Below, piece by piece: positions 22,948-47,147 of a DNA stretch of 64,000 bases. The DNA lies in the NCBI GenBank assembly GCA_015486615.1, contig WFRI01000090.1, positions 1,608-65,607 of the forward strand. Reading direction: 5' to 3'. The notes beneath the pieces were generated by a model. That model saw only the letters and a program-made list of their open reading frames with translations, did not search any database and had not been told where the DNA came from. A program made the translations under genes and the position numbers. How positions within the stretch are numbered: position 1 is the stretch's first letter; each line of letters begins with the position of its first letter. Source of the DNA: Candidatus Omnitrophota bacterium (GTDB lineage Bacteria > Omnitrophota > Gorgyraeia > Duberdicusellales > Duberdicusellaceae).

Positions 22948-23064
22948 TAGCAAAATTATAGAACAAAAAGAAATTTTGTCAAGAGGAATTACTTCCAATT
23001 ACTGACAACACGCCTTCTTGCCACTACCCGTGTAAAAAGCGCTAACGCGCTTTTTAGCGGTAGG

Positions 23065-23080
23065 TGTTTCATATGAAACA
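23065..23080. promoter_or_regulatory. Second parS-like palindrome TGTTTCATATGAAACA (inside the 22-bp palindrome AGGTGTTTCATATGAAACACCT)
   Basis: Identical to the 22932 site; lies next to the yidC stop and a hairpin AAAAAGCGCTAACGCGCTTTTT. Confidence 0.5.
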
Positions 23081-23081
23081 C

Positions 23082-24545: not shown

Positions 24546-24549
24546 AAAG

Positions 24550-24759
24550 TTATTTTAATTCGTCTATCCCTCCGGGATGAAACGGATGGCATTTCATTAT
24601 TCTTTTTAAACTAAGAATCAACCCTTTTACAAACCCGTATTTCTCAAAAGCCTGGCGGCTGTATTCTGAACAACTGGGATAAAAACGGCAGGAATGCGGC
24701 AAATAGGGCGAAATATATTTTTGGTAAAAGGCCAGAAAATACACTGCTAAATATTTCAT
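24550..24759 (-). CDS. yidD: Membrane protein insertion efficiency factor YidD
   Basis: [22 protein letters not shown] signature; 69 aa. Confidence 0.9.
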
Positions 24760-24896
24760 TAAACCGAGAGTTTTTTTCTGCCTTTTTTCCTGCGCCGGTT
24801 AAGAATTGCCCGGCCGGTTTTAGTCTGCATTCGTTTTCTAAATCCGTGTTTGTGCTTGCCTTTTAATTTTGTAGGAGTAGTATACCCTTTTTTCAT
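24759..24896 (-). CDS. rpmH: 50S ribosomal protein L34
   Basis: Hand-translated [45 protein letters not shown]. It is missing from the ORF track at 45 aa. Its stop shares one base with the yidD ATG. Confidence 0.85.
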
Positions 24897-25052
24897 AGCA
24901 AAAAGATTTTAGCCAAAGACTACCGAAGTGTCAAGGGTTATTACCAAAAATTTTGTTGCATTCGCTTCCGCCTGAGTTATAATTAAGTCTTAGTTGTGCC
25001 CTCTTTTTACTGTTTTTTCTTTTCCTGTTAATAAAAAGGTACTGCAAAGGTT

Positions 25053-26375
25053 ATGAATCTTTGGGAAAATATATTAAATCAATTAAGGCCCCATATCGGC
25101 AGCACTGCTTTAGAAACATGGTTTGCCCCGATTAAACTAAAAACCGCGGGAAAGACATCTTTGATAGCAGAGGTTCCGGATAAGTTTTTTAAAGACTGGA
25201 TTGAAGAACACTACGGAAGCCTGTTAAAAAATATTCTTTCTTCTTTAGGATATGAACGGGATTCTTTGGTTTTAGAAATCAACCCTGGGCTTTTGCACAC
25301 AAAAACGCAAAGAGTTCTAAAGAAAATCGGCGCTCGATTTAAAAATCCGCCGGCCAATGTAGAACACACTAATTCCCGGTTTACTTTTGAAAACTTTGTT
25401 GTCGGCCCGTCTAACCGTATGGCTCATGCGGCAGCAGTAGCAGTATCCGAATCTCCGGGCAAAATCTACAATCCTTTGTTTATCTACGGCAATGTAGGCT
25501 TGGGCAAAACCCATTTAATGCAGGCAGTTGCCCATGCTGCAGCAAAAAGAGCCGAAGTAAAAATACAGTACATATCTTCAGAGAATTTTACCAATGAATT
25601 GATAAGCGCTATCCAGAAAAGAAGCACCCAAAAATTCCGGGAAAAATACCGCAATATAGACATTTTATTAATAGACGATATTCACTTTATTGCCGGAAAG
25701 GAATCTACTCAGGAAGAATTTTTTCATATGTTTAACGTGCTTTACGACAACCACAAACAAATTGTCCTCTCATCGGACCGGCCGCCTAAAGAAATCCAGC
25801 AATTGGAGGAAAGGTTAGTTTCGCGATTCTGCTGGGGGCTGATTGTAGACATTCAGCCGCCGCCGTTTGAAACCCGCATGGCAATTTTAAAAAAGAAAAT
25901 AGAAAAAGAAGTGGTGAAAGTAGATGATAATGTCTTGGCTTTTATTGCAGAAACTATTACCACAAATATTAGGGAATTAGAAGGCGCTCTAATAAGAGTC
26001 ATTGCCTACGGAGTAATAGAAAATAAACCTATTACTTTAGAAACAGCCCGCAATGTCTTAAAAGATATGGTCAAAGAACATACAGAAAAGATTGACACTA
26101 AACGGATTTTAAATAAAGTGAGCCTTTATTTTGGTGTTTCACCGGAAGAAATAAAATCAAAAAAACGCAGTAAAAATTTAGTCCTGCCCCGCCAGATTTC
26201 TATGTACCTTTTACGGGAATTAACTGATTTGTCTCTGCCGGAAATAGGAAATACTTTAGGTTCCAAACACCACACAACAATACTGTATGCGCATAAAAAA
26301 ATAAAGGAGGCATTAAAAAAGAATTTGCAGATGCAGAATGTTATTAACAGTATATTAAACGATATTCACAGTTAA
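25053..26375 (+). CDS. dnaA: Chromosomal replication initiator protein DnaA
   Basis: GNVGLGKTHLMQA Walker A, AAA+ sensor motifs, and a C-terminal DNA-binding domain. Confidence 0.95.
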   Translation: MNLWENILNQLRPHIGSTALETWFAPIKLKTAGKTSLIAEVPDKFFKDWIEEHYGSLLKNILSSLGYERDSLVLEINPGLLHTKTQRVLKKIGARFKNPPANVEHTNSRFTFENFVVGPSNRMAHAAAVAVSESPGKIYNPLFIYGNVGLGKTHLMQAVAHAAAKRAEVKIQYISSENFTNELISAIQKRSTQKFREKYRNIDILLIDDIHFIAGKESTQEEFFHMFNVLYDNHKQIVLSSDRPPKEIQQLEERLVSRFCWGLIVDIQPPPFETRMAILKKKIEKEVVKVDDNVLAFIAETITTNIRELEGALIRVIAYGVIENKPITLETARNVLKDMVKEHTEKIDTKRILNKVSLYFGVSPEEIKSKKRSKNLVLPRQISMYLLRELTDLSLPEIGNTLGSKHHTTILYAHKKIKEALKKNLQMQNVINSILNDIHS

Positions 26376-26382
26376 TATAAAA

Positions 26383-26391
26383 ATATCCACA
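26383..26391. promoter_or_regulatory. DnaA-box-like nonamer ATATCCACA in the AT-rich dnaA-dnaN spacer
   Basis: One mismatch to TTATCCACA; the surrounding 100 bp are very AT-rich (a candidate DUE/oriC segment). Confidence 0.35.
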
Positions 26392-26477
26392 GGTTGTTAT
26401 TATCAAAATATATTGATAAATAAAGAAACTTGGAAGTTTTACACAATATTCTAAACTCTTACTATTAAGGAGGCTAC

Positions 26478-27575
26478 ATGAAAATATTAATAAATAGAGA
26501 AGTATTAGAAGAGATGTTAGTTAGTTTGTCTGGAGGGGTCTCTACAAAGAATTTGCAGATACTTTCCTTTGTTTTAATTGAAGCATTAGATAAAAAAGTT
26601 CGTTTTACCGTTACCGACTTGGATATAACTATAACTCATACCAAAAATAGCAATATTCAAGAAAAAGGCAGTATTTGCGTGCCTTTTAAAAACATCGTTT
26701 CTATTGTAAAGTTTTTGCCCAACAGTGAAGTCGTTTTAGACGCACATGATAACAAACTGTGGATAAGGTGTGAAAGGTGTGAATATGTTTTGAATGGAGT
26801 TGGAAAGGAAAGTTTTCCTAAAATACCTCAAAGCAGAGAAAAACAGGCAGTAAAAATTTTGGCTGACGATTTAAGAGATATGGTTAATCTGACCAGTTTT
26901 TGTGTTCTTATGGGGGAGAGTAATTTTATGTTGAGTGGGGTTTTGTTTGAGTTTAACAAAGATGAGTTTAGTCTGGTTGCTACTGATGGAAAAAGGCTTG
27001 CTAAAGCCAGCCGAAAAATGGCTTCTGACCAGGCTGATTTGTCCGATAAAGTTGCTTTTATTCTGCCTTTGAAGACGGTTATGGAACTTAATCATAGCTT
27101 AAAAAAGCAGGAATATGTTTTTGTAGGGTTTGGTAAAAAGCAGGTTGAGTTTGATATGGGCGATATTTTAATTAATTCCCGGGTTATTGAAGGCGAGTTT
27201 CCGGATTACGAAAAATACATACCCCAGGAATCTGACAGCAAATTGTGTGTGGAAAAAGAAAATTTTTTGGCGGTTTTGCGCCGGGCTAATACTTTGAGCA
27301 CAGCTGATTATAAAGGTGTTAAGATTGAAATAAAGAAAGATTATTTAGTGATTTCTAAGTCCACTCCTGATTTGGGGGAGTATAGGGAAGATTTGGCAGG
27401 CGTGGAATATTCCGGCAGAGAAATTGTTTTGGGATTTAACCCTGAGTATTTAATTGATGTATTAAAAAATGCAAATCAGGCGAGGATTTGCCTGGATATT
27501 TACGGGCCTGAAAAACCTATAGTTTTACGCAGTGCGGGGTATTTGTATTTGGCTTTGCCTATGCGTTTAGACTAA
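26478..27575 (+). CDS. dnaN: DNA polymerase III beta sliding clamp
   Basis: 365 aa; three-domain beta-clamp pattern; lies downstream of dnaA. Confidence 0.9.
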   Translation: MKILINREVLEEMLVSLSGGVSTKNLQILSFVLIEALDKKVRFTVTDLDITITHTKNSNIQEKGSICVPFKNIVSIVKFLPNSEVVLDAHDNKLWIRCERCEYVLNGVGKESFPKIPQSREKQAVKILADDLRDMVNLTSFCVLMGESNFMLSGVLFEFNKDEFSLVATDGKRLAKASRKMASDQADLSDKVAFILPLKTVMELNHSLKKQEYVFVGFGKKQVEFDMGDILINSRVIEGEFPDYEKYIPQESDSKLCVEKENFLAVLRRANTLSTADYKGVKIEIKKDYLVISKSTPDLGEYREDLAGVEYSGREIVLGFNPEYLIDVLKNANQARICLDIYGPEKPIVLRSAGYLYLALPMRLD

Positions 27576-27579
27576 CTTT

Positions 27580-30193
<2,614 letters not shown>

Positions 30194-30198
30194 ATGTT

Positions 30199-32643
30199 AT
30201 GATTCAAAATAACAATTTACCCCAAAATATTGTCCCGCGGTATTTAGAAGAGGAGATGAAAGCCTCTTATATCACTTACGCTATGAGTGTAATTGTCGGA
30301 AGGGCTTTGCCGGATATTCGTGACGGCTTAAAGCCGGTGCATCGCAGGATTCTCTATGTAATGGACCAGTTGCATTTAAAGCATAACCAGCCGTTTAAAA
30401 AAAGTGCAAGGATTGTTGGTGAGTGCTTAGGTAAATACCATCCTCACGGAGACAGCGCGGTATACGATGCCTTGGTGCGTATGGCGCAGGAATTTTCTTT
30501 AAGGTATCCTTTGATAGACGGTCAGGGAAATTTTGGTTCCATAGACGGTGATTCTCCTGCTGCTATGCGTTATACAGAAGCCCGCTTAGCGTATATTGCC
30601 GAGACAATGCTTGCGGATTTAGACAAAGATACTGTAGATTTTGTCCCTAATTTTGACAATTCTCTAAAGGAGCCAGTTGTTTTGCCGGCAGTCCTGCCCA
30701 ATCTTTTAATTAATGGTGCATCGGGAATTGCCGTGGGGATGGCTACAAACATTCCCCCGCATAATTTAGGCGAGATCTGCGATGCTATTTGTTATGTAGT
30801 TGACAATCCTGAATGCCCGATTAAAGACTTGAAAAAATTCATCAAAGGCCCGGATTTTCCCACTGCCGGGGTTATTTGCGGGAAAAAAGAAATTCTGCGT
30901 TATTTTGAAGAGGGCCGCGGCAGGCTGACTGTGCGGGCTAAGGCTGTAATTGAGCAGGATAAAACCCGCAGTTATATTGTTATTACCCAGCTGCCCTATC
31001 AAGTTAATAAGGCTAATCTTTTGGAAACCATAGCCAATCTTATCAGCAGTAAAAAGATAGAAGGGGTTGCGGATTTAAGAGACGAGTCTGACCGGGATGG
31101 ACTAAGGATAGTTATTGATTTAAAACGCGATTCCCAGCCGAAGGTTATATTAAACCAGTTGTATAAACATACTCAGATGGAAATAACTTTTGGCGTGATA
31201 CTTCTGTCTTTAGTGAACAACAAACCAAGGGTGCTGAATTTAAAGCAAATGCTGCAGTATTACATCCAGCACCGCAAGGAAATTATTGTCCGGCGCACCC
31301 GATTTGAGCTGGAAAAAGCCCGCAGAAGGGCGCATATTTTAGAAGGTTTAAAAATTGCCTTAAAGCATTTGGACGAAGTTATAAACACGATAAAGAAATC
31401 CAAGTCTCCGCAGGACGCCAAGGAAAAGCTGATGAGGAAATTTAATCTTTCCGATGTGCAGGCTCAGGCTATTCTGGAAATGCAGTTGCAGCGCCTGACG
31501 GCTTTGGAGAGAGATAAAATAGACGCCGAATACAAAGAACTTCTTAAAAGGATTGCTTACCTGCAGGCTGTTTTAGAATCGGTAAAAAAGCAGAATGAAT
31601 TAATTAAAGAAGAAGTGAGGAATTTAAAGGAAAAATTTGGGGACGAACGCCGCACAGAAATTGTTTCCGAAAAGGAGGAAATAGAAATTGAAGATTTGGT
31701 TGTGGAGGAAAAAGTGGTAATTACTATTTCCGGCCAGGGCTATATTAAACGCCAGCCTTTGTCTTCTTACAGAAAGCAGGCCAGAGGGGGAAGGGGAATT
31801 ACTGCTATGGCAACCAAAGAGGAAGATTTTGTAGAACATTTGTTTGTTTGTTCCAGCAAAGACACGTTGCTTATTTTTACCAATAAAGGCAAGGTTTTTG
31901 GGGTCAAAGCCTATGAAGTTCCTGCAGGCAGCAGGGTGTCTAAAGGCAGAGCCATTGCTAATTTTCTGCATTTTTCTTCCGGAGAAAGGGTGGCGTCTGT
32001 CTTATCTGTCAAAGAATTTACTCCCGGACAGTTTGTGGTTATGACTACAGCCCGGGGTTTAATTAAACGGGTGGATTTGGACGCTTTTTCCAATATAAGA
32101 AGGACCGGGATTATCGGCATTACCTTAGACAGGGAAGATACTTTAATTGGTGTGGCTGGCGGAGAAAGTGAAAACGACGAGGTGCTTTTAAGCGCATCTT
32201 CAGGGAAATGTATCCGCTTCAAAGTTAAAGATGTGCGGTTGATGGGCAGGCAGGCTATGGGAGTAAAAGGCATCGCTATCGGCAAAAAAGATGCGGTATT
32301 GGGAATGGTTTTGATTAATTCTTATATCAGCCGCCAGGATTTTTCCGTTCTTGCTGTAACTGAAAAAGGGTTTGCTAAAAGGACTAAAATAAAGGAATAC
32401 CGCACTCAGTCCCGGGCAGGCAAAGGCGTTATTGGGATTAAAGTTTCCGGCAAAATAGGCAGTGTGGCGGCAGTAGTTTTGGTTACTGAGAACGACGAGG
32501 TGGTGGTTATTACACAAAAAGGTATTCTTATCCGCTGCAAAGCTAATGCTATTCGGCCTTCGGGCAGGAATACTCAGGGAGTGCGGCTTATTAAATTGGG
32601 CAAAGACGATTTAGTCGCTACTGCGGCTCGGGTTGTTGAATAG
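30199..32643 (+). CDS. gyrA: DNA gyrase subunit A
   Basis: 814 aa; catalytic Tyr region (AAMRYTE), GyrA box and beta-pinwheel repeats. Confidence 0.95.
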
Positions 32644-37357: not shown

Positions 37358-38830
37358 ATGAAACCAGCCAGCCGGCAGATTGTTAAATTAATTCGCAGAG
37401 AGTATAGGAAGAATCCGGGTTTTGGCTGCAGGCTTTTGTCTAAAACCGTTCAGGAAAAATACGGACTCTCAATTTCCAAAAGTTCTGTCCAGCGCATTCT
37501 AACAAAGCAGGGAGTTTCTTTATCCGCGGGCAGAAAGGAGAAAATACTTTTGCTTTCCCGCAGGGACAAACAATACGCGGGGTTAATTTTTCTAAAGGCT
37601 GCCTGGGATTTAATCGGAATAGACAATATATGCCGGCAGGCCCGCAGGCGGTTTGGAGTGAATGCCATACGTGCAAAAAAAACAATTCTATACTATTTTT
37701 TAACAGATATTGCCGGGATTAGAGATTTTGACAATCCGGATCTCCAGGATATTCTCAGGGAATTTTTTGCCTTGCCTTCAAAATCAAGATTGCCGGGCAA
37801 GCCCCCGGGTACAGATATAGAAATAGGTATTCCGCATTATGCGATTGAGCCAATGCCGGCTTACAAAATCACTTTTGCCAATGGCTTTTATTTTTACCTG
37901 GATCCTTATTTTAAAAGTTTGTGGGGCAGTTATGACAGTATTCCCTGGCAATATGTTTGTTTTTCCCCGGCAGTGCAAACATACTGGCAGCAGATATTTA
38001 CCCGCGGCAGTTTGCCTGTGCTGAGCCTGCCTTGTTTTGGTAATGTTTCTGCTCTTGTTTTCCGCGTTTTGGAAGGTTTTAGCAAAAGCAGGATTTTAAA
38101 AATAGAAGGTATATCCCGGGACGGCAGAGTTGTAGAAGAAATTAAACCTTTGGGCTTAATTTCAGAGATATCTATAGGTTATCATCCCAGACAGATTCAG
38201 ACAGAGCATAAGAGGAAATTAAGCACTGCAAGCCTGCGGTTTGCCGGCAGGCAGATAAAAGTTGTTTTATTCACAGCAAAAATATCTTTAAACAAATCTT
38301 ATTTAGAACTGCCCCTTGTTGATATTTTTGACAGAGAGGGCAGCCTTTTGTGGAAGGTGATTTTTTCCGGTTCGGCCATATTAAAAGATTTACCTTCAGC
38401 CGTCAAAGAGTATCTATTGCGGCATATAAATCCGCAGTCAGGGTTAAATGCCCACTGGAAGGTTTTAGAAAGAGCCAGTTTTAGCGAAGACTCTATTGGT
38501 TTCGTGCGGCAGTATTTCAAGATTAAACAACAGCGCTTTATGTCTGTTCCCAGCCTGATTAGGTTATTAGAACTTGTCTTGATTAATAAATTCGGCCTGA
38601 CCGGTGCAGACTTAAAAACAATCCTGGTTTTGCCCGGCGATGTATTTAGATTGGGAGGCTTTTACAAAAAAATTGTTTTTCCTGAGAGCAGCAAAGTAAG
38701 GCCGGTTATAGAGATTTTTAACCAAATGCCGATTTTTTACTGTGGCAAAAGAGTGATTTTATCCCTTGGCCGGCAGGCGTTTCAGGAAAACGTTTTCATG
38801 GCCAAAAAGGAAAAGGCACATAAGGCTTGA
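37358..38830 (+). CDS. Hypothetical protein with an N-terminal helix-turn-helix-like segment
   Basis: IVKLIRREYRKNPGFGCRLLSKTVQEKYGLSISKSSVQRILTKQG looks like a transposase or regulator HTH. The remaining roughly 430 aa have no recognised motif. The start is trimmed because the upstream frame overlaps the NSS transporter. Confidence 0.3.
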   Translation: MKPASRQIVKLIRREYRKNPGFGCRLLSKTVQEKYGLSISKSSVQRILTKQGVSLSAGRKEKILLLSRRDKQYAGLIFLKAAWDLIGIDNICRQARRRFGVNAIRAKKTILYYFLTDIAGIRDFDNPDLQDILREFFALPSKSRLPGKPPGTDIEIGIPHYAIEPMPAYKITFANGFYFYLDPYFKSLWGSYDSIPWQYVCFSPAVQTYWQQIFTRGSLPVLSLPCFGNVSALVFRVLEGFSKSRILKIEGISRDGRVVEEIKPLGLISEISIGYHPRQIQTEHKRKLSTASLRFAGRQIKVVLFTAKISLNKSYLELPLVDIFDREGSLLWKVIFSGSAILKDLPSAVKEYLLRHINPQSGLNAHWKVLERASFSEDSIGFVRQYFKIKQQRFMSVPSLIRLLELVLINKFGLTGADLKTILVLPGDVFRLGGFYKKIVFPESSKVRPVIEIFNQMPIFYCGKRVILSLGRQAFQENVFMAKKEKAHKA

Positions 38831-38929
38831 AACTCTGCATACGAATGTGATATAGTTTATATGGATTAATTGTCTAAGGGAGGCAGATAATAATCAACAC
38901 AAACACGGCGTGTTGGGAAAGCTAAGAAT

Positions 38930-39085
38930 ATGTGCAGGAATATTAAAAGCCAGGTGTTTTTAGAGTATGTTGTAATATTTGCCGCTTTTATTTTGGCTGT
39001 GCTGGCGGCAGGCAATTTTTTAGGGAAGGTTCATAAAGGGTTTAATACCGGCTTTAACGAAGCAGTAGAGGAAATCTTATGGTAG
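38930..39085 (+). CDS. Flp-family prepilin, 51 aa (candidate major pilin)
   Basis: MCRNIKSQVFLEYVVIFAAFILAVLAAGNFLGKVHKGF: a class-III-signal-like N-terminus (SQVFLEY) plus a hydrophobic helix. It is missing from the ORF track. Its stop overlaps the next paralog's start. Confidence 0.5.
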   Translation: MCRNIKSQVFLEYVVIFAAFILAVLAAGNFLGKVHKGFNTGFNEAVEEILW

Positions 39086-39432
39086 GGGAAAAAGCCCAAA
39101 GTTTTTTAGAATACGCTTTTTTGTGGGCGATAATTGCTGTTGCTTTGTCAGGAATGTGGATATATATGCGCAACAGTGTTACGGCTAAGGCTGAAGATAT
39201 GCGCCAGGATGTTGATTTGAGTTTTCGCAGTCATGAGGAAACCACGCCTTTTGGGTATGAGCATGCTGACGCCAATGTTGTTAATTGGCAGGAAGTTGTT
39301 AATAACGTGAATAGAAATATACTCAGCCGGTATGAGGGCAGGATTGATTCTCTGCCGCCGGGTATAGATATAGATAGTTTTCATAACATAATGGACAATA
39401 GTATTTCGGTTGATTCCGAAGATAAGAATTAA
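39079..39432 (+). CDS. Flp-family prepilin paralog (117 aa) with a C-terminal extension
   Basis: MVGEKAQSFLEYAFLWAIIAVALSG..YMRNSVTAKAEDM core shared with the other paralogs. Confidence 0.7.
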   Translation: MVGEKAQSFLEYAFLWAIIAVALSGMWIYMRNSVTAKAEDMRQDVDLSFRSHEETTPFGYEHADANVVNWQEVVNNVNRNILSRYEGRIDSLPPGIDIDSFHNIMDNSISVDSEDKN

Positions 39433-39454
39433 GAAGTTAAGAGGCGGACTAATT

Positions 39455-39841
39455 ATGGCAGACAGAAAAGCCCAGAGTTTTTTGGAGTATGTAGCAGTGG
39501 TTATGGTTACTAGCCTTGCTTTGTCGGCAATGAGTCTTTATTTTAACCGGGCAATAAATTCTGTTTCCAGAGAGCAGTTAGAAATGCGCAGCGAGAATTT
39601 AAGGGACAAATCCAATGTAGTCCCTGCTATTTCGCTTCCCCGGCAAGATAATAATACCGGTGATATAGACAGCCTAAAGCAGAGAGTAGATGAGTTGTTT
39701 AGGGTGGTTGACAATAACAGGAAACAGGTTGAGGCGGAATTCGCCCCGGAAAATCTTGTGAATTTACAAACGGACCAGGCAGGCGCTACGGAAAACTTTT
39801 TTAAAACAACCGGCAGCGCCGTTGTTAACAATGAGGACTAA
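39455..39841 (+). CDS. Flp-family prepilin paralog (about 128 aa)
   Basis: MADRKAQSFLEYVAVVMVTSLALSAMSLYFNRAINS; SD GAGGCGG lies upstream of this ATG. The track's longer N-terminus is probably spurious. Confidence 0.7.
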   Translation: MADRKAQSFLEYVAVVMVTSLALSAMSLYFNRAINSVSREQLEMRSENLRDKSNVVPAISLPRQDNNTGDIDSLKQRVDELFRVVDNNRKQVEAEFAPENLVNLQTDQAGATENFFKTTGSAVVNNED

Positions 39842-39856
39842 CGATAGGAGGTGTTT

Positions 39857-40066
39857 ATGTTTTTGCCTAAAAAAGCCCAGAGCACATTGGAATACACTTT
39901 GATTGTAGCAGCTATTGTAGCGGCAGTAATCGCTGCAGCCGGACATATTCAAACCAAGGTTACTAACAGTATAAATTCAGCAGGCGATACTTTGGAAAAT
40001 GCGGCAAATCATATTAGCGATTTGCTTGATGATATCCCACAGTCGGGGTCGGCACAACAGCAGTAG
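39857..40066 (+). CDS. Flp-family prepilin paralog (about 69 aa)
   Basis: MFLPKKAQSTLEYTLIVAAIVAAVIAAAGHIQTKV; SD AGGAGG lies 5 nt upstream. Confidence 0.75.
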   Translation: MFLPKKAQSTLEYTLIVAAIVAAVIAAAGHIQTKVTNSINSAGDTLENAANHISDLLDDIPQSGSAQQQ

Positions 40067-40106
40067 AATTTAGAGGACGTTGAAATAAAATAAAGGAGGA
40101 GAGAGT

Positions 40107-40448
40107 ATGTTGATAAAAATGAAAAAAGCCCAGTCAACCGCAGAGTATGCTATCCTGTTTTCCGTTGTTTTGGCGGCTTTGGCCGGTATGCAGGTTTATA
40201 TGAAAAGGTCGTTTAACGCCAAGTTAAAAGACTCAGCGGATTTGCTTACTAAAGTGACAGGTTCAGTAGGAGGCGTTCAATTAGGCACGACCAACCAATA
40301 CGAGCCATACTATACTAACCAGCATATTAATACTACCTATACTCAGGATGATACAACTAAGAAATACCAAAACTATGCTGAAAATTATGAGCATACTCAG
40401 CAATATAACGCGAGTTCGTCCTATAGGCAGGAGGGTGTTTCGGAATAA
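40107..40448 (+). CDS. Flp-family prepilin paralog (113 aa) with a Thr/Tyr/Gln/Asn-rich tail
   Basis: MLIKMKKAQSTAEYAILFSVVLAALAGMQVYMKRSFNAKLKDSAD; tail TNQYEPYYTNQHINTTYTQDDTTKKYQNY. Confidence 0.75.
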   Translation: MLIKMKKAQSTAEYAILFSVVLAALAGMQVYMKRSFNAKLKDSADLLTKVTGSVGGVQLGTTNQYEPYYTNQHINTTYTQDDTTKKYQNYAENYEHTQQYNASSSYRQEGVSE

Positions 40449-40482
40449 CCTATTTATGGAGTTGTATTCAAAAGGGGGTTTT

Positions 40483-40797
40483 ATGTTCATAAAAATTAAG
40501 AAGGCACAAAGCACATTAGAGTATGCCGGGCTTATAGCGATTGTGATTGCTTCTGTTATTACTATGCAAAGTTTTGTGCGCAACCATATCCAGGGCAAAA
40601 TTAAGAGCAGTGCAGACAATATCAGCGATACAAGTTTTGACCCCGGAAGAACGGATACGGAGCAGAGCACAAATTTACTGGGCGACAAGACAGAATACAG
40701 TTCAGTTGTAAACGGCGTATCGGAAACAAACGCTGCGGACTATCGCTACAAAGAAGAGACCACAGTTAATACTACTTACGACTCCAGTAAGTTTTAA
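40483..40797 (+). CDS. Flp-family prepilin paralog (about 104 aa)
   Basis: MFIKIKKAQSTLEYAGLIAIVIASVITMQSFVRNHIQGKIKSSADN; polar tail. Confidence 0.7.
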   Translation: MFIKIKKAQSTLEYAGLIAIVIASVITMQSFVRNHIQGKIKSSADNISDTSFDPGRTDTEQSTNLLGDKTEYSSVVNGVSETNAADYRYKEETTVNTTYDSSKF

Positions 40798-40832
40798 GAA
40801 AAGCAGTTTCACCAGGCACCGCAGGAGTTAAA

Positions 40833-41120
40833 ATGAAGAATGCTCAGACAAGCATAGAATATGGAGGATTATGGATACTGCTGGCAGGAGTGTTGATTAC
40901 TATGGCCGTTTTTGTGCGCGGTCATATTCAGGCCAGGCAGAAGCAGGAAGGTGAGAAAATCTCCCAATTTTTATATATTCCCGGAAAGACTACAATTAAC
41001 CAGCATACAACAACTATTAGTAATACCAGCAGTCTCTCGGATGATATCCACAGTGAATCTAATTCAAAGGTTGATACAACGAGCTCTTTGGATATGACGA
41101 CGGATGTTAATCCTAAATAG
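40833..41120 (+). CDS. Flp-family prepilin paralog (95 aa)
   Basis: MKNAQTSIEYGGLWILLAGVLITMAVFVRGHIQARQK; Thr/Ser-rich tail. Confidence 0.7.
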   Translation: MKNAQTSIEYGGLWILLAGVLITMAVFVRGHIQARQKQEGEKISQFLYIPGKTTINQHTTTISNTSSLSDDIHSESNSKVDTTSSLDMTTDVNPK

Positions 41121-41138
41121 AAAATAGAATAGGAGGCT

Positions 41139-41675
41139 TTGATGAAAAGGGCTCAGAGTTTAATTGACTATGGGATAATAGTAGGTGTAGCCGCAATAGC
41201 CTTGTCGGCAATGTCAGGGTATATGCAGAGAAGTTTGCAGGCGAAGACAAAAGACCTTGCAGATGTTTTTATTACCAGTAAGCAGAGAGTTGCAGTTAAT
41301 AAAAAAATGGTTTATAACAAGGGCGGGGCAGATGAGCAGGAATTGGCGCCTGCGAACATGTCCGTGTCTGAAACATCTCAGGACGATAGTATATTGGAGA
41401 ATGCCGGAAATCACCGGCATACAGTGAATACGAACAGCCATACCTCCGGAGCCAGTATCTCTCCCAACGAGGACCCGGACAAGGATATAAATACTGTGGA
41501 ACTGCTGGAAAACATTAAATCCGTTCAGAATGCGCAGGCTCAGACTGCTTCTGATGATTTTGCGGATTCCAGCCAGGGCGAGTCTGCGCAGGATAAGGTG
41601 AAAGGCGATTTTTATGCCAATGTCCAGGATAGGGACCAGAATTATATTCGTCCTAATCCTAATAGCCAGGAATGA
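41139..41675 (+). CDS. Flp-family prepilin paralog (178 aa) with a long polar acidic tail
   Basis: MMKRAQSLIDYGIIVGVAAIALSAMSGYMQRSLQAKTKDLADVF. Confidence 0.7.
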   Translation: MMKRAQSLIDYGIIVGVAAIALSAMSGYMQRSLQAKTKDLADVFITSKQRVAVNKKMVYNKGGADEQELAPANMSVSETSQDDSILENAGNHRHTVNTNSHTSGASISPNEDPDKDINTVELLENIKSVQNAQAQTASDDFADSSQGESAQDKVKGDFYANVQDRDQNYIRPNPNSQE

Positions 41676-42388
41676 GGCGGACGGTGGATATTTTAGGTAA
41701 TAAGAATAATGGATATATGTTTAGTAAGAAAAAAGCGCAGGCCGCTGTAGAAACCGCGATATTTTCGGTTATACTAATTACGCTGTTTGCTGGTGTGGTA
41801 AATTACGCGGAAGAGATGAATTATGCCCAGATGGGAGCAATGGAAGCATTCCGCAGGGGGTTAAGTTATGCTGATACAAATATTGGTGCTGTTTCTTATT
41901 CTCTGACCCGTCACCGGCGCAGCGCAGACTTAAGTTCTCCCGGCCTTGATTCCGGCCAGAGTGCGGTTTCTTCAGGCTCCGCGAACATTTATTGGCTGGT
42001 AAGCGCTGGTAAGATGACGCCGACAGAAGGAAGTTTTGTGGTTGAGAATAGAGACGGCGCAGAAAAAAACATAAATATGGATGAGTTGTCTAACAAAAAA
42101 GACGTCCGGAAAATGCATTCTACAACACGTCAGGAAAACACTTCTGTTGATTCCCGTTTCCAGACAGGCCAAGGAAGCACTATTGACGAAACATCTTCTG
42201 CCTTTGTGCAGGACAATATTCAGGATTCTTATACGATAGACGGGGTGAAGAAAGACTATCCCGCGCATTTAGAAGTCCAAAAAGGCATATATGATACCCA
42301 GCACACTTTTTATGTATATAAGCCCGGCTTGGGCCAGGGGAAAATAATAAAGCGGCAGCGGCATTGGAATACCCGGGTGGAAAAGTAA
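41672..42388 (+). CDS. TadE/TadF-like pseudopilin
   Basis: MFSKKKAQAAVETAIFSVILITLFAGVVNYAEE resembles the TadE N-terminal (PF07811-like) pattern. The true start may be the internal ATG at 41717. Confidence 0.6.
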   Translation: MRRTVDILGNKNNGYMFSKKKAQAAVETAIFSVILITLFAGVVNYAEEMNYAQMGAMEAFRRGLSYADTNIGAVSYSLTRHRRSADLSSPGLDSGQSAVSSGSANIYWLVSAGKMTPTEGSFVVENRDGAEKNINMDELSNKKDVRKMHSTTRQENTSVDSRFQTGQGSTIDETSSAFVQDNIQDSYTIDGVKKDYPAHLEVQKGIYDTQHTFYVYKPGLGQGKIIKRQRHWNTRVEK

Positions 42389-42398
42389 AGAGGCGGAT

Positions 42399-42665
42399 AT
42401 GTTTTTAAGAAAAAAATTTGGCCAGGCAGTTTTAGAAGTTTGTGTGATGTTTACTTTAGTGGTTATGCTTATGGTTTTGATGTTGAGAATTTGGAATTGG
42501 ACAATAGTGCCTATTGTCCAGCGCCAAGTGAATTACAATAATACCAGAGTGATTGCCGGCGCGCCCATAGTAGGCAGTTCTTCCAATATCCGCGAGCCGG
42601 TTATTTGGCCGGTATATATTACCCGGCCTTTAGACAAAGATTATTTATTTAAAGGACAGAAATAA
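42399..42665 (+). CDS. TadE-like pseudopilin (88 aa)
   Basis: MFLRKKFGQAVLEVCVMFTLVVMLMVLML: a canonical G-x4-E-type Flp/TadE prepilin motif with Gly. Confidence 0.6.
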   Translation: MFLRKKFGQAVLEVCVMFTLVVMLMVLMLRIWNWTIVPIVQRQVNYNNTRVIAGAPIVGSSSNIREPVIWPVYITRPLDKDYLFKGQK

Positions 42666-44150
42666 ATGTTTAGAACATTTTCTGCTGCTAAAGCCGGGCG
42701 CAGGGGGCAATTGACCCCTTTTTTTATTGTCTTGATAACCGCCTTAGTTATTGCGGCTTTAGTCACCATTAATATCGGCAAAGTGGCTTTGAATAAGACT
42801 TATGTGGCCAATGCTTCTGACGCCGGTTCTTTGGCCGGGGCCTCGGTTATGGCTTCGGTTTTTAACAATATCGCAACAGCCAACAGTCAGATGAAGGTTG
42901 CTTACCAGGATTTTGTAACTACTACAGCCGTGCTTTATGCAGCCGCTTTAGCGGCTTTAATAGTAAGCCATAAAACATCTTTGGCTTCTTTATCTTCAGC
43001 GAAAGCCGCTGCTACAAAAGCTTGCAAAGCGCCTTGTGTGGCAGCAGGCATGGTGGCCACAGCGATAGGTTCGTTAGGGAAAGCCTCTGCGTCTATGGGT
43101 ATATTTATAACTACTTTAAAGTCCATAGGTATAGCAATTACCAGTTTTTCAGTTGCTCAATTGTTTCTCTACAATATTATCAGGAAAATGGCCGCTAAAG
43201 GCAGGAAAGACGCTATTAAACTTGCTTACCGGTATTTGTTTATTAACAGCGGAATAACCAGCCGGTTAAACTCCGGGCAAAGAGATAAGTTTTCTGACTG
43301 GCTGGACTCTTCAGATGTTTCCAACGTTACTTTTGACAAAGCCTCGGCTATGTTTGCGGAGTTTAACCCTTTAATATCCCATATTAAGCAAAGATTTCCG
43401 GTTGCAGGCTCGGGCAGGAGGTATCACTGGAAGGACGGCTGGGAAAAAAATCATATTGTCCAGGGTTTTGTCAAAATAAACAAGGTGGATAAATTTATTG
43501 TCCGGATTACAGCTTTGCCTTATCCTGCTCAAATAGCTTTGTTGATAGGAATGGGGAAAATTGCTTCTGATATTTTGGCGCAGTGGGTAGCAGTGGGCGA
43601 TGGATATGGTTTAGCTGATGATTCCTTAATCGTAGCCTGTGGTTGTGATGATTGTTGCCCTCATCCCGCCTGTTGTGCTTGTAGATCTGCTGCTTGTGCG
43701 GGTGCGGAAGAGGAGTTGGGCATAGATACAGCGGCCCATAGCGCGGCAAATGCGCAAATTATTCGTTTTTTATACCCTCTGCTAACTGAGTCCGGAGTAG
43801 GCCTTGCTCCTGCAGCCTCGCTGCGCAGTTCTTCGGGCTTTAACTTGTCTTGGGCCACAATAGTCTGGATAGACGATGTTGTTCATGACCGCGGTGTGTA
43901 TGTTTTGTCGTTTCAACTTCACCAGGGCAAAGATTTGGGGCTTTGGCAGGAAAAATATCCTGTGCCTTTAAGCTTCTCAGTTGCTGATTTCCGGGGCTCG
44001 GGCAGAATTTCGCCGCCGAAGTTAGGGTTTGACGCCCGGATTGTCCGCACAGATATATCGGGGAAAGGCGCCTTAAGCGCCAGCCAAAGGTTTCCTTTGA
44101 AGATTTTAAGAGGCAATCTAAAACAAAAGGTGCAGGGAGGTGGAAAATGA
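42666..44150 (+). CDS. TadG-like pilus-assembly protein (494 aa) with a Cys-rich insert
   Basis: The N-terminus (GQLTPFFIVLITALVIAALVTINIGKVALNKTYVANASDAGSLAGA) matches the TadE/G-like (PF13400-type) pattern. It contains a CGCDDCCPHPACCACRSAACAG cluster. Confidence 0.55.
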   Translation: MFRTFSAAKAGRRGQLTPFFIVLITALVIAALVTINIGKVALNKTYVANASDAGSLAGASVMASVFNNIATANSQMKVAYQDFVTTTAVLYAAALAALIVSHKTSLASLSSAKAAATKACKAPCVAAGMVATAIGSLGKASASMGIFITTLKSIGIAITSFSVAQLFLYNIIRKMAAKGRKDAIKLAYRYLFINSGITSRLNSGQRDKFSDWLDSSDVSNVTFDKASAMFAEFNPLISHIKQRFPVAGSGRRYHWKDGWEKNHIVQGFVKINKVDKFIVRITALPYPAQIALLIGMGKIASDILAQWVAVGDGYGLADDSLIVACGCDDCCPHPACCACRSAACAGAEEELGIDTAAHSAANAQIIRFLYPLLTESGVGLAPAASLRSSSGFNLSWATIVWIDDVVHDRGVYVLSFQLHQGKDLGLWQEKYPVPLSFSVADFRGSGRISPPKLGFDARIVRTDISGKGALSASQRFPLKILRGNLKQKVQGGGK

Positions 44151-45079
44151 AGCGGTATTTTTTATGCCTTACCATTTTTTTAATGTTTAACACGGCCGGT
44201 GCTTCGATGCTGGATGATTTAAAAAATGTATTTAACCCTAAATCTTTCCCTTTGCCGGAACAGACAAAGGTTTTGAGAAAAGCCCGAACCATGCAGACAG
44301 GAGACATAACTGTTACCAGCACTATTTATACCAGTTCTTTGACGCAGAAGCAGGTCAAAGAATTTTTCCTGAAACATCTTCCCGGATACGGCTGGCAGTA
44401 TGTGGATATTCGGTCTAAATTAAAGGGAGTACAGCAGGCGTTTCCTAACCAAAAAATGGAAAAAATGGAGAATTCTATAACAAATTCACTTGATACTCTT
44501 GGCTCACAGTTGTATTTTACCAATTCCCGGGGCAATAGTTTAACAATAATGTTTATGGACCGCGGGCAAAATCCCTCCGGGGTTGATTTTGTAGTGAGTT
44601 TTTCGCAGGGAAAATCTTTATCTTTTATCAACCAGGAGTTAAACGAAGTTTTTCCGGTTGAGCCGCGGAAAATATCCGGTGTTCCTTTATATCCCAATGC
44701 CCGGCAGGTATATTTTCAAAAAGGCGGCAGTTCTATAACTGCAGGCTATACTACCTCTGACAGCATAGAGACGGTAGCCGGATTTTATGTTGAAAAAATG
44801 CCTAATTACGGCTGGGAATATTCGGATTTAACCGGCAGGATGAATGCGGCTTTGGACAAAGAGGCATTGAAAAAAAGTCTGGCCGCTGCAGAAGAGGATA
44901 ATTCCGGAAGCTGCCCGTCTTGTCCCGGAAAAGGAATTTCATCTCAAGCCGCACAGTATATAGACAATATGCGGATGAAAAGCATAGTTTTTCAAAAGGG
45001 AAAATCTCTCTGTGTTGTTTCCTTGTCCGGCATTGCCGGCGGCGAGACTAACATAACTGTTTTTTACCGGAATCCGTAA
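44147..45079 (+). CDS. Secreted protein with a tandem-duplicated domain of about 130 aa (pilus locus accessory)
   Basis: Signal-peptide-like MKRYFLCLTIFLMFNTAGASM. The internal repeat has halves LPGYGWQYVDIRSKL and MPNYGWEYSDLTGRM. Its start overlaps the tadG-like stop. Confidence 0.4.
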   Translation: MKRYFLCLTIFLMFNTAGASMLDDLKNVFNPKSFPLPEQTKVLRKARTMQTGDITVTSTIYTSSLTQKQVKEFFLKHLPGYGWQYVDIRSKLKGVQQAFPNQKMEKMENSITNSLDTLGSQLYFTNSRGNSLTIMFMDRGQNPSGVDFVVSFSQGKSLSFINQELNEVFPVEPRKISGVPLYPNARQVYFQKGGSSITAGYTTSDSIETVAGFYVEKMPNYGWEYSDLTGRMNAALDKEALKKSLAAAEEDNSGSCPSCPGKGISSQAAQYIDNMRMKSIVFQKGKSLCVVSLSGIAGGETNITVFYRNP

Positions 45080-45090
45080 AAAGGAGGAGC

Positions 45091-45297
45091 ATGCTTAGGA
45101 AAGCCCAGACATTTTTAGGTTATGTGGTTTTGACAGTGATAATAGTAGCAGCGTTTTACGCAATGAGCGTGTTTCTAAGAGGTGTCTTTGGCGGCAGATA
45201 TAAAAGCACTGCTGACACTATTGGCTCTGGCGAGCAGTTTGATATTCACAATATGGATAATTACTCAGATGACCAGATAGAGGTGATTAACCGATAA
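45091..45297 (+). CDS. Flp-family prepilin paralog (68 aa)
   Basis: MLRKAQTFLGYVVLTVIIVAAFYAMSVFLRGVFGGRYKSTAD; followed immediately by a family-2 terminator-like repeat. Confidence 0.7.
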   Translation: MLRKAQTFLGYVVLTVIIVAAFYAMSVFLRGVFGGRYKSTADTIGSGEQFDIHNMDNYSDDQIEVINR

Positions 45298-45370
45298 AAA
45301 GACGCTGGCGCGTTTTTTAACACCTCGGGGGCGGAAGATTAAATGCAAAGTGCAAAATGGCCCCGAAAAA
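45297..45370 (+). repeat. Family-2 intergenic element, copy C (after the last Flp paralog)
   Basis: AAAAGACGCTGGCGCGTTTTTT-AACACCTCGGGGGCGGAAGATTAAATGCAAAGTGCAAAATG. Confidence 0.7.
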
Positions 45371-45430
45371 AATGTTTCGCAATTTAACCCCTATTCCTTT
45401 TTCTCTGCCGTGTGGTAAAATAAGTCCGTT

Positions 45431-46276
45431 ATGGTTGGATTAATGTTATTATGCCTTTTTGGTCTGGTTTTTCTGACGGCTTACTTTGGAGTTCCCTGGA
45501 TTGTTAAGACCTGGAAAGAGGCTGAGCAGGAAAGGGCTGCGGAAGACAAGGCGGATTTGGAGAATATGTTTATTTTTGGCCGGCAGAAAATTTTAGCCCT
45601 GCTTTATATTATTATCCCTGTTGTCTTAGGAGCAGCATTATATTTTGTTTATAAGAACACCTGGTTTATTGTGGTTGGGATTATTGCCGGGTTTGCTGCG
45701 CCTTTATCTGCTATACGGGTAAAAAAATCCCTGCGCAGGAAGGCTTTTCATAATCAGTTGATAGATGCTTTGCTTATAATGAATAGTTGTTTGAAAGGAG
45801 GCTTGAGTTTAATCCAGGCGTTTGAAGTTTTAGCCGAAGAAATGCCTTCGCCTATGCATGATGAGATAACTTTGCTTTTAAGAGAGCACAAGTTGGGCGT
45901 TCCTATAGAAGAGGCATTAGAGAGGTTTAACAGCCGTATGTATTCAGAAGAATTAGGCCTTATTGTGAGTGCAATTTTAGTTGCCAGGGAAACAGGCGGG
46001 GATTTGACCCGGGTTTTTTCGCGGCTAATCACTACTATCCGGGACAGGTTCAAATTAAAAGAGATGATAAATACCCTTAGCCTGCAAGGCCGGCTTCAGG
46101 GTATTATTATGGCTGTTATTCCTTTTCTTTTTGCCTGGTTTGTCTTCAGGACCAATCCGCACCATTTTGATATAATGTTTGAAACCGACATAGGCAGAAT
46201 TCTCTTAGGAGTGGCAGTTTTTCTGAATATTTTAGGGGCATTTTTAATCAGGAAGTTTAGTATAATAAAAGCATAA
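45431..46276 (+). CDS. tadB: TadB-like pilus assembly membrane protein (T2SSF domain)
   Basis: 281 aa; T2SSF-type region LIDALLIMNSCLKGGLSLIQAFEVLAEEMPSP flanked by TM segments. Confidence 0.75.
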   Translation: MVGLMLLCLFGLVFLTAYFGVPWIVKTWKEAEQERAAEDKADLENMFIFGRQKILALLYIIIPVVLGAALYFVYKNTWFIVVGIIAGFAAPLSAIRVKKSLRRKAFHNQLIDALLIMNSCLKGGLSLIQAFEVLAEEMPSPMHDEITLLLREHKLGVPIEEALERFNSRMYSEELGLIVSAILVARETGGDLTRVFSRLITTIRDRFKLKEMINTLSLQGRLQGIIMAVIPFLFAWFVFRTNPHHFDIMFETDIGRILLGVAVFLNILGAFLIRKFSIIKA

Positions 46277-46280
46277 AATT

Positions 46281-47147
46281 ATGGAAACCCTTTTGTTGTT
46301 TTTAATATCTGCTGCCGCCATATACTTTGTTTTGTTAAGTATGGGCGGGAAAGAAGAGGATGTCTCTTTGGCCGAGAGGATAGCCCCCGGCGGCGGGCCG
46401 CCGGAGAAAAAGAAAGAATCTCTGCTTTCAGTTTTTGCGCCGGTTAACGAAGTAATTCTTAAAAAGTTAAGGCTTAAGCCTTATTATCAGCAGAGGCTTT
46501 ACTTTTTGAGGAAGAGGTATAACTGGACTCCTGCGGAATTCTTTGCTTTGAAGTTTTTAAGTGCAGCAGGTTTTGTTGCCATATCTTTAACTTTAGGCTT
46601 AAGAATCGGACCGTTGTTTTGGCTGGGATTTGTTATTTTCTTTTTTCTGCCGGATTTTTGGCTGAATGCCCAGGTTAAGAAAAACAAAGAAGCCATTAGG
46701 CGCTGGCTTCCTGAAACTGTGGATCTTTTATATCTTTGTGTAAGCGCCGGCCTGGATTTTCTTTCGGCTTTAAAATGGATTCTGCGTAAAAGCCGCACCA
46801 ATCCTATGCTTGAGGAATTAAAAGTTGTTTTAGATGAGATTAATGTCGGCAAAGGCAGGGTTCAAACATTGAGAGATATGAGTAAACGTATAGGCATACC
46901 AGATGTATCTTCTTTTGTGCAGGGGATTATTCAGGCAGAGAGAATGGGGACACCTGTTGCCGAAGCGTTTACGATTATTTCCGAAGATTCCCGTTACCGC
47001 CGTCTGCAGAGAGGCGAGCGTCAGGCGTATAAATCGCCTTTGAAAATATTAATTCCGCTTATTTTCTGTATCCTGCCCACGGTTTTAATAGTAGTTGCCG
47101 GGCCTATTTTTATTCGTTTTATGCAGGGAGGATTTCCGAAATTTTAA
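46281..47147 (+). CDS. tadC: TadC-like pilus assembly membrane protein (T2SSF domain)
   Basis: 288 aa; VDLLYLCVSAGLDFLSALKWI...MGTPVAEAF T2SSF pattern; C-terminal TM. Confidence 0.75.
   Translation: METLLLFLISAAAIYFVLLSMGGKEEDVSLAERIAPGGGPPEKKKESLLSVFAPVNEVILKKLRLKPYYQQRLYFLRKRYNWTPAEFFALKFLSAAGFVAISLTLGLRIGPLFWLGFVIFFFLPDFWLNAQVKKNKEAIRRWLPETVDLLYLCVSAGLDFLSALKWILRKSRTNPMLEELKVVLDEINVGKGRVQTLRDMSKRIGIPDVSSFVQGIIQAERMGTPVAEAFTIISEDSRYRRLQRGERQAYKSPLKILIPLIFCILPTVLIVVAGPIFIRFMQGGFPKF

Follow-up and report, generated by a model that had tools for sequence, protein, structure and literature searches.

An Ordered Array of Flp-Like Pilin Genes in a Probable Tad Pilus Locus of the Omnitrophota

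Introduction

The stretch of DNA described here (64 kb, hereafter the window) carries at 38930-47147, with all genes on the plus strand, a tandem array of small genes for proteins resembling Flp pilins, together with genes for two TadE/TadF-like pseudopilins, a TadG-like protein, a secreted protein and the TadB and TadC platform proteins. This array is far larger than those of textbook Tad systems, yet typical of the Omnitrophota. The region very probably supplies the pilins and the inner-membrane platform of a Tad (type IVc) pilus system, its host being a diderm that, judged by the homologous loci, most likely belongs to that phylum. Tad systems of Omnitrophota were already reported by Seymour et al. 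(PMC10066038), with an analysis of TadB, TadC and RcpA and a proposed role in predation or parasitism; the pilin passages of that article do not analyze the pilin genes of the Tad locus. A 2026 preprint mentions Tad cassettes adjoining giant genes, and no paper describing the pilin array or its Gln+1 motif was found in the open-access literature.

Organization of the Pilin Gene Array

The array starts with a run of eight small genes (38930-41675); in the motifs given below an arrow marks the predicted cleavage site. Gene 1 (38930-39085; 51 amino acids, KS↓QVFLEY) encodes a short prepilin of Flp size and overlaps by 7 nucleotides (nt) with gene 2 (39079-39432; 117 amino acids, KA↓QSFLEY), the product of which has a polar C-terminal extension of about 70 amino acids. 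Gene 3 (39455-39841; 128 amino acids) shares the KA↓QSFLEY motif and also encodes a C-terminal extension, and gene 4 (39857-40066; 69 amino acids, KA↓QSTLEY) is again short. Genes 5 (40107-40448; 113 amino acids), 6 (40483-40797; 104 amino acids) and 7 (40833-41120; 95 amino acids) encode mid-size proteins, that of gene 5 having a tail rich in Thr, Ser, Asn and Gln, and gene 8 (41142-41675; 177 amino acids, RA↓QSLIDY) encodes a pilin-like protein with a long acidic and polar tail. Gene 9, also named y (45091-45297; 68 amino acids, KA↓QTFLGY), is a lone short prepilin gene located just 5' of tadB. The predicted mature products of genes 1, 4 and 9 measure 44, 62 and 63 amino acids, respectively, and those of the six other small genes 91-173. 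In the initial annotation nine consecutive small genes plus the one at 45091 had been counted; the latter was confirmed, and the consecutive run comprises eight, the ninth gene encoding a TadE-like protein of 223-238 amino acids.

Including the two TadE-like genes described below, the window holds eleven open reading frames (ORFs) with a class III signal, nine of them Flp-like. A six-frame regular-expression scan of the 64 kb placed all eleven motif ORFs at 38930-45297 and none in the other ~56 kb. Intergenic spacing in the array ranges from -7 to 41 nt (9-41 nt except for the overlap of genes 1 and 2), and a GGAG-type Shine-Dalgarno sequence occurs 5' of most array genes. Co-transcription of the array is suggested by this tight spacing and by the gene 1/2 overlap.

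At the nucleotide level the array genes are divergent, as had been claimed from the outset. DNA repeats among them are limited to stretches of 29-45 nt coding for the signal motif (60-80% identity), and the pilin paralogs share 14-42% protein identity over their N-terminal 55 amino acids.

The same DNA is present in GCA_027007805.1 and in an 80-kb metagenome scaffold in ENA (L001), where a run of N at ~6350-6450 (window ~41540) falls inside pilin gene 8 and the gene is uncalled; the two versions are otherwise 99.9% identical, and that of the window is contiguous.

Signal Motif and Family Assignment

In all nine small proteins a short basic leader precedes (A/S)-Gln, after which come three residues, (E/D/G)-Tyr and a hydrophobic stretch of about 20 residues. 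Gln at position +1 is the single invariant column across the eleven ORFs, and Glu occupies +5 in nine of them. The form (A/S)↓Q(S/T/V)xxEY is found in seven of the nine small genes; gene 8 has DY instead, and gene 9 has GY. In these two genes position +5 departs from the N-terminus initially described as common to the set. The conserved block proposed to follow the helix (Y.KR..Q.K.K..AD) proved to be less general: in an alignment of the nine window pilins it is clear in genes 5, 6 and 8 and partial in genes 2, 3, 7 and 9, and it was not found in the short genes 1 and 4. The consensus of the wider family reads [KR][KR](A/G)↓QSTLEYA, a hydrophobic helix, and then Y.(K/Q)R.(V/I)Q(G/A)(K/N)LK.

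The combination of Gln+1 and Glu+5 after a short leader defines the EppA-dependent pilins of Methanococcus (PMC3875500), and the Flp motif, made up of Thr/Ser2, Glu5, Tyr6 and the hydrophobic stretch after them, builds the core of the Tad pilus solved in Caulobacter (PMC10710030). The window pilins unite the Epd-type Gln+1, which is also present in Gram-positive Flp pilins, with the E5-Y6 pair of Flp. These proteins are best termed Flp-like pilins of type IVc in which the +1 residue is Epd-like.

Among the Pfam models, the archaeal-type Class_IIIsignal (PF04021) scored best with the window pilins, slightly ahead of Flp_Fap (PF04964). PF04021 scores were 22.8 bits (gene 4), 21.5 bits (gene 1), 15.0 and 11.2 bits against a cut-off of 23.7, and the best Flp_Fap score, obtained in one gene (gene 4), was 18.1 bits against a gathering cut-off of 32.2. 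At E<=0.01, PF04021 matched 34 of 74 family members and Flp_Fap 13 of them, and a few database relatives of the window pilins are annotated with PF04021. The NCBIfam scan of the window pilins gave nothing meaningful, and neither this nor the Pfam scan placed an enzyme or toxin domain in any array member.

Conservation and Age of the Array

Related loci were collected by scanning one genome per species (185,579 species) for [KR][KR]AQSTLEY, the query being a 15-sequence subset of the 74-sequence family alignment. The scan gave 106 matches, from which 80 loci were kept. Almost all are labeled Candidatus Omnitrophota, some carry "Planctomycetia" labels in third-party annotation (TPA) records, and in the one locus labeled Dehalococcoidia the coordinates of the pilin ORFs are identical to those of an Omnitrophota locus. 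A plus-strand tandem array of class-III-signal genes was found in every locus with enough flanking sequence, and the 34 loci of at least 18 kb contain 7-14 pilin-like ORFs (median 8.5), compared with 11 in the window.

A consensus gene order was obtained by clustering the ORFs of the loci and by Pfam scans of representatives. Its 5' part consists of genes for a small membrane protein, a PpiC/SurA-like protein, RcpC/CpaB, the RcpA secretin with a TonB_C tail, and a TadZ-TadA fusion of ~719 amino acids. These are followed by a DUF192 gene or a second short ATPase gene (~355 amino acids), by a gene for a conserved protein referred to here as U, by two to four short pilins (mature 40-60 amino acids) and by three to six mid-size pilins (mature 90-125 amino acids). 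The 3' part comprises two TadE-like genes, a TadG-like gene, the gene of a secreted protein named S, one short pilin gene, tadB and tadC. The first TadE-like protein has a mature length of ~180-500 amino acids, and the second usually one of ~75 amino acids, reaching ~250 in some loci. Variants of this order have TadB/TadC inside the array, or mobile or defense genes between the ATPases and U. The comparison of loci proposed with the initial annotation thus revealed an ordered array and Tad components shared by 80 homologous loci.

The individual window genes were assigned to array positions by BLAST positional orthology, the closest loci being L015, L019, L039, L044, L048 and L051; this approach replaced a regular-expression classification of pilin types, which was too crude and left 506 of 657 pilins unclassified. 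Gene 1 corresponds to array position 1 in nine related loci. Genes 2 and 3, both with the ~70-amino-acid extension, map to position 2, so that gene 3 is a second copy of this type; the best matches of gene 2 are the 44-amino-acid position-2 genes of the six closest loci. Gene 4 maps to position 3 in most loci, gene 5 to position 4 with 43-57% identity, and genes 6 and 7 to position 5. The two TadE-like genes and the lone pilin have their own counterparts, and related loci likewise show the succession S, lone pilin, TadB, TadC. For gene 8, BLAST gave no clear array position. The best match of gene 7 overall is gene 6 of the window and, in related loci, position 5; it is a lineage-specific duplicate of position 5.

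For eight of the eleven window genes, relatives in 29-77 other loci outscore the best paralog within the window; such closer relatives occur in 42 loci for gene 1, in 77 for gene 5 and in 49 for gene 9. This agrees with the initial proposal that the genes are old paralogs and not recent duplicates, the relatives being located at the same array positions. Positional orthologs of the majority of window paralogs occur in dozens of genomes; these paralogs are thus ancient and specialized, and the array is a conserved ordered set that has undergone two lineage-specific duplications. Recent tandem duplication and phase-variation cassettes were rejected as explanations in view of the deep orthology and the lack of long repeats.

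Pseudopilins, Platform Proteins and Secreted Protein S

The first gene after the run of eight, E (41717-42388, plus strand; 223 amino acids, KA↓QAAVE), encodes a TadE/TadF-like pseudopilin that scored only 12.6 bits with TadE PF07811 (as a 238-amino-acid ORF). It is followed by e (42399-42665, plus strand; 88 amino acids, FG↓QAVLE), a small TadE/TadF-like pseudopilin for which no Pfam match was obtained. Of 70 homologs of E and e, 15 match PF07811 at E<=0.01. Orthologs of E cluster in 46 loci and homologs of e occur in 53, directly 3' of E wherever both were mapped.

The TadG-like protein (42666-44150, plus strand; 494 amino acids) matches PF13400 Tad with 29.6 bits (E 8.9e-7, cut-off 22.3) and has homologs in 35-38 loci. 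The TadB-type (45431-46276) and TadC-type (46281-47147) platform proteins, both on the plus strand, have one T2SSF domain each (PF00482, 71.4 and 52.2 bits, respectively), and these two and the TadG-like protein all score above the Pfam cut-offs. A platform split into single-T2SSF proteins is a hallmark of Tad and Epd systems, discussed by Denise et al. (PMC6668835). The set of genes that had been predicted downstream of the pilins (two TadE-like, one TadG-like, one secreted protein, TadB and TadC) was hence recovered as such. Of the profiles named in the initial annotation, Tad PF13400 exceeded its cut-off and Flp_Fap and TadE remained weak. The public record of the TadG-like protein differs by one residue or in its start, and the protein contains a Cys-rich stretch, CGCDDCCPHPACCACRSAAC, encoded at 43638-43703 and without domain assignment.

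Protein S (44147-45079, plus strand; 310 amino acids) starts with a signal-like sequence and is regarded as a secreted accessory protein. It contains two internal repeats (..LPGYGWQYVD and ..MPNYGWEYSD) that end in (L/M)P.YGW(Q/E)Y.D, and it is kept 3' of TadG in 24-35 loci. A weak precomputed match to Pfam PF27226 (AF_1845) is recorded for S, and a phmmer search against PDB returned no relative.

A Peptidase_C39-like protein is encoded 2-3 kb 3' of tadC in ten related loci (e.g., L037:15894-16896, L026:19545-20141 and L021:19795-20144) and is absent from the window.

Motor ATPases

The sole T2SSE ATPase seen in the window is a short protein (17338-18411, minus strand; ~357 amino acids, T2SSE 178.9 bits) encoded ~19 kb from the array, across the probable replication origin. 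Its start was revised to ~18411 because the longest ORF runs into tRNA genes. Its identity is 58-62% with the short ATPases of L015, L048, L051, L059, L061, L066, L067, L072, L073 and L076 and 43-48% with the TadZ-TadA fusions, and it is the ortholog of the second ATPase that lies between TadZ-TadA and U in related loci. Such a second short ATPase may act as a dedicated second motor, possibly for retraction, which would be unusual for Tad systems.

A TadZ-TadA fusion of ~719 amino acids is present in most related loci, the ATPase cluster being represented in 54 loci counting the window (median 719 amino acids), and RcpA/RcpC lie 5' of the ATPase in 43-46 loci, as recognized by Secretin, T2SS-T3SS_pil_N and RcpC domains. 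Tandem ATPases (the TadZ-TadA fusion plus a T2SSE protein of ~355 amino acids without N-terminal domain) were observed in L015, L048, L059, L061, L066, L067, L072, L073, L076 and L084; other related loci have a DUF192 protein in the slot of the second ATPase. The two minus-strand tRNA genes next to the window ATPase, tRNA-Val(GAC) (18453-18528) and tRNA-Leu(TAA) (18582-18669), lie 3' of rpoZ-like and gmk genes.

Predicted Structure of the Pilins

The AlphaFold2 model of gene 4, built from a 16-sequence alignment, is a single continuous helix (residues 10-59, mean predicted local distance difference test (pLDDT) 73.6), and in that of gene 6 residues 7-48 are helical and the tail beyond them has pLDDT <50. 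The long N-terminal helix expected of pilins was therefore predicted in both. The solved Caulobacter Tad pilin is likewise a continuous helix, of 45 residues and without globular domain (PMC10710030), and gene 4 is 35% identical to this Flp pilin (8u2b) over 40 ungapped residues. Gene 4 resembles Flp more closely than any other member and may encode the major pilin or an adapter pilin. When the family profile was compared with PDB sequences only two archaellins and the Flp pilin were touched, with non-significant E values of 0.4-0.9, and a Foldseek search with the single-helix pilin model gave no matches, unsurprisingly for a lone helix.

The tails of 294 mid-size family members contain 26% Thr plus Ser. 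Only nine of these tails have two or more Cys, which sets them apart from classical disulfide-bonded pilin heads.

Conserved Protein U and the Spacer Before the Array

Upstream of the array, U (37358-38830, plus strand; ~490 amino acids) consists of an N-terminal helix-turn-helix (HTH) of transposase type and a domain of ~400 amino acids without assignment. The HTH_Tnp_Tc3_2 model gives 21.8 bits with U, below its cut-off; of 35 homologs 16 match HTH_Tnp_Tc3_2 and 14 match HTH_32, and only the N-terminal HTH is recognizable. The HTH domain aligns with homologs from residue ~7 of the 490-amino-acid ORF; the public gene call (P0072, 426 amino acids) begins at 37550 and drops the N-terminal HTH (37358-37549). 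A homolog of U adjoins the array in 69 loci, the window among them, where it mostly separates the ATPase from the pilins; in six loci it is inverted. A full HMMER search of 1.84e9 representatives gave 88 relatives, of which the ten looked up are unnamed or "hypothetical". Word-indexed homology searches with U returned only U itself, and no PDB relative was found, a profile search against PDB sequences giving only chance-level matches to 14-3-3 proteins. A DDE transposase was rejected as the identity of U because its alignment has just one nearly invariant acidic column and its position in the locus is fixed. As a guess, U may be a regulator of the pilin operon.

The spacer between U and pilin gene 1 contains a promoter-like site (38827-38856, plus strand) composed of TTGAAA, an 18-nt spacer and TG-TATAGT, with TG before the second hexamer and 10 of 12 matches, as a consensus match only; the region holds 28 such sites against 21.3 (standard deviation 5.0) in shuffled sequences, not clearly above. 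An Rfam scan detected no riboswitch or other RNA near the array.

Genes for IS200-like Y1 transposases adjoin U in 20 loci (e.g., L070:5359-5925, L026:6803-7423 and L084:6526-7041), and in L084 inserted toxin-antitoxin genes (AbiEii, ParE) separate the ATPases from U. The junction between ATPase and U appears to be a hotspot of insertion and rearrangement in related loci.

Genomic Surroundings

The window is a segment of bacterial chromosome around the replication origin, probably located at 24546-25052 with flanks extending over 21251-32643, and the GC skew changes sign near 25 kb. The genes diverge from the origin: yidC and parAB are encoded by the minus strand, whereas dnaA, dnaN, gyrB and gyrA lie on the plus strand. 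The presence of dnaA, dnaN and gyrBA identifies the host as bacterial. An AbiEi/AbiEii type IV toxin-antitoxin pair is encoded at 61870-63277.

Comparison With Known Systems

With the canonical Tad/Flp loci (flp-tad-rcp of Aggregatibacter, Cpa of Caulobacter) the region shares the split one-T2SSF TadB and TadC, the TadG-like and the TadE-like proteins, and the orthologous loci, unlike the window, also hold RcpC, the RcpA secretin, TadZ and TadA. The pilins have in common a short leader, E5-Y6 and a hydrophobic helix, and the short members are of Flp size and predicted to be helix-only like PilA of Caulobacter. In contrast, the canonical loci have one to three flp genes plus tadE and tadF, whereas nine Flp-like and two TadE-like genes are present here. 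The residues around the cleavage site also differ, with Gln at +1, usually Ala at -1, and Ala in place of Gly at +7; many members have polar tails of 50-130 amino acids, and the Pfam scores of the window pilins fall below the cut-offs. Moreover, in the related loci TadZ and TadA form a single fusion protein, a second short ATPase exists in some lineages, and the locus contains the lineage-specific U and the secreted S and is devoid of a tadV-type peptidase.

The Kil system of Myxococcus xanthus (2025) is a predatory Tad-like pilus whose 15 pilins comprise one major pilin, a pair of helix-only Flp adapters and four tips of TadE/F/G-like type (PMC12075869). In both cases one Tad-type machine would serve a large pilin repertoire; Kil is linked to cell-cell attack (PMC12075869), and the Omnitrophota are likewise proposed to be predators or parasites (PMC10066038). 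However, the Kil pilins are scattered over several clusters and are mostly (predicted) disulfide-rich L/M/N (TadE/F/G-like) triplets, whereas the Omnitrophota have a single E-e-G set and an expansion that is Flp-like, collinear in one operon, almost Cys-free and conserved in the phylum.

Four flp genes in Bdellovibrio were termed the largest known complement in 2017 (PMC5430801). Bdellovibrio and like organisms are also predators and have four to six flp genes, which are non-interchangeable and each needed (PMC5430801), but only two or three of them are in the tad locus, the rest being dispersed, whereas the Omnitrophota arrays are ordered and about two to three times larger. According to Seymour et al. 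(PMC10066038), TadB and TadC of Omnitrophota group with proteins of Bdellovibrionales. The array, initially described as atypical, is so with respect to model Tad loci, although 7-14 genes are usual in Omnitrophota and Kil uses 15 pilins.

The archaeal Epd/DUF361 pili of Methanococcus resemble the window pilins in Gln+1, Glu+5 and a short basic leader, in the presence of small pilins (54-63 amino acids) plus larger pilin-like paralogs with at least ten genes per genome (PMC3875500), in the split platform genes (PMC6668835) and in PF04021 as the top Pfam model. They differ in that the present host is bacterial and the orthologous loci contain a secretin, in that Tyr+6 and the Flp motif are absent from Epd pilins, and in that the window scores are just under the PF04021 cut-off. 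An EppA-type peptidase was not seen in the screens described below.

Proposed Mechanism and Alternative Explanations

In the model that best accounts for these data, and that we hold with considerable confidence, the region would be the pilin and platform module of a Tad pilus, expressed as a single plus-strand operon preceded by U, with nine genes for Flp-like prepilins and two for TadE/TadF-like pseudopilins. The short basic leader of all eleven products would be cut between (A/G/S) and Gln+1 by an A24 prepilin peptidase whose gene lies elsewhere in the genome. The mature proteins would then be pulled from the membrane and polymerized on the TadB/TadC platform, powered by Tad ATPases (the short ATPase at 17338-18411 and a TadZ-TadA fusion expected elsewhere), and the filament would exit via an RcpA secretin also encoded elsewhere. 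We infer by analogy a division of labor among the paralogs. As in the solved or dissected Tad systems, the shaft may be formed by one short helix-only member (gene 1 or 4) and the priming tip complex by E, e and TadG, while the other short and mid-size paralogs may act as adapter or minor pilins, or as co-polymerizing subunits with Thr/Ser-rich surface tails.

Several observations speak against this model. No window pilin reaches a curated Pfam threshold, and position +5 is Gly in gene 9 and Asp in gene 8. The mid-size tails were modeled at pLDDT <50 and may be disordered or just unmodeled, and the major and minor roles are assigned by analogy. Domain scans of the 64-kb window revealed no secretin, RcpC or TadZ-TadA, and no candidate ORF for an A24 prepilin peptidase was present; a crude screen based on a GxGD-type active-site motif and hydrophobicity found no A24-like membrane ORF within 10 kb of any of the 80 loci either. 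The identification as a Tad/Flp locus thus holds in that the genes are Tad-type and the pilin-like proteins have a Flp-type motif and a long helix, with the qualification that the window contains half a machine. As no peptidase was found in the window or near the 80 loci, it is presumably encoded elsewhere, and with the secretin, RcpC, TadZ-TadA and the peptidase all missing from the window, we infer rather than observe the processing of the prepilins and the completeness of the machine in this genome.

A possible alternative, to which we attach a rather low probability, is that several paralogs are major pilins. They would build either a heteropolymeric shaft whose surface layer, possibly glycosylated, consists of the Thr/Ser-rich tails, or different, condition-dependent filaments on one machine, comparable to the use of multiple archaellins or Epd pilins in archaea. 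At least five orthogroups are order-conserved over dozens of species, which exceeds the need of a tip complex plus an adapter, and the Thr/Ser content and scarcity of Cys of the mid-size tails fit such a layer. Precedents are found in Methanococcus, where several of at least ten EppA-type pilin-like genes are dispensable for the known pilus (PMC3875500), and in the pilin of Geobacter, which is split into two polypeptides (PMC10710030). Nevertheless, solved Tad pili are homopolymers of one Flp pilin, with a diameter of ~50 Å (PMC10710030), and the co-transcription suggested by gene spacing offers no obvious route to over-express several majors. A more elaborate version, which we regard as slightly more doubtful still, would be a composite filament assembled from at least five ancient collinear Flp-like orthogroups, with a core of short subunits and the Thr/Ser-rich, possibly glycosylated tails of the mid-size members as a sheath or host-binding brush, controlled by U and processed by a peptidase that accepts Gln+1.

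The initial annotation had also raised an adhesin repertoire or secretion substrates as possible roles. In the latter case the machine would resemble type II secretion, and the mid-size proteins with a class III signal would serve as cargo for export or build a short pseudopilus in the periplasm. Their tails are polar and have no predicted fold, and archaeal class III signals also target non-pilin proteins, a point alluded to in PMC3875500. We consider this explanation unlikely, since every member retains the full hydrophobic alpha1 helix and most retain E5-Y6, which are determinants of Flp assembly and not features of cargo, and since related loci have the pilus-type outer-membrane parts RcpA/RcpC and no member has an enzyme or toxin domain. 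Finally, bacteriocin or RiPP (ribosomally synthesized and post-translationally modified peptide) precursors, bearing leaders and adjoining Tad genes by chance, had been named as the finding that would overturn the pilin assignment. Such precursors are small and tandem-encoded like the proteins of the array, and the C39-peptidase-like protein 3' of tadC in ten related loci could be read in their favor, but most loci, like the window, lack that gene. In the window neither a double-glycine leader nor a modification enzyme or ABC exporter was found, the motif represents a class III signal with Q+1/E+5, and the linkage to Tad genes is conserved (with the window included, homologs of TadB occur in 57 loci and those of the ATPase in 54). 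This possibility is extremely improbable and was rejected on account of the signal motif and the conserved linkage.

Significance

The Omnitrophota, according to PMC10066038, are widespread, mostly ultra-small and uncultivated bacteria thought to be predators or parasites, and Tad was proposed as their device for attachment or attack. What is added here is that an array of 7-14 pilin-like genes, conserved and ordered, makes up the pilin side of the Omnitrophota Tad system, that its signal motif is intermediate between those of archaeal Epd and bacterial Flp pilins, and that it is accompanied by conserved, uncharacterized proteins, U in most loci and S in many. The phylum would thus be a second lineage, besides Myxococcus with Kil, where a Tad machine serves a very large pilin repertoire. 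The hybrid Q+1/E5-Y6 motif may inform the proposed transfer of Tad from archaea to bacteria. If the composite filament were true, it would represent a previously undescribed type IV filament architecture, in ultra-small bacteria that attach to or attack their hosts.

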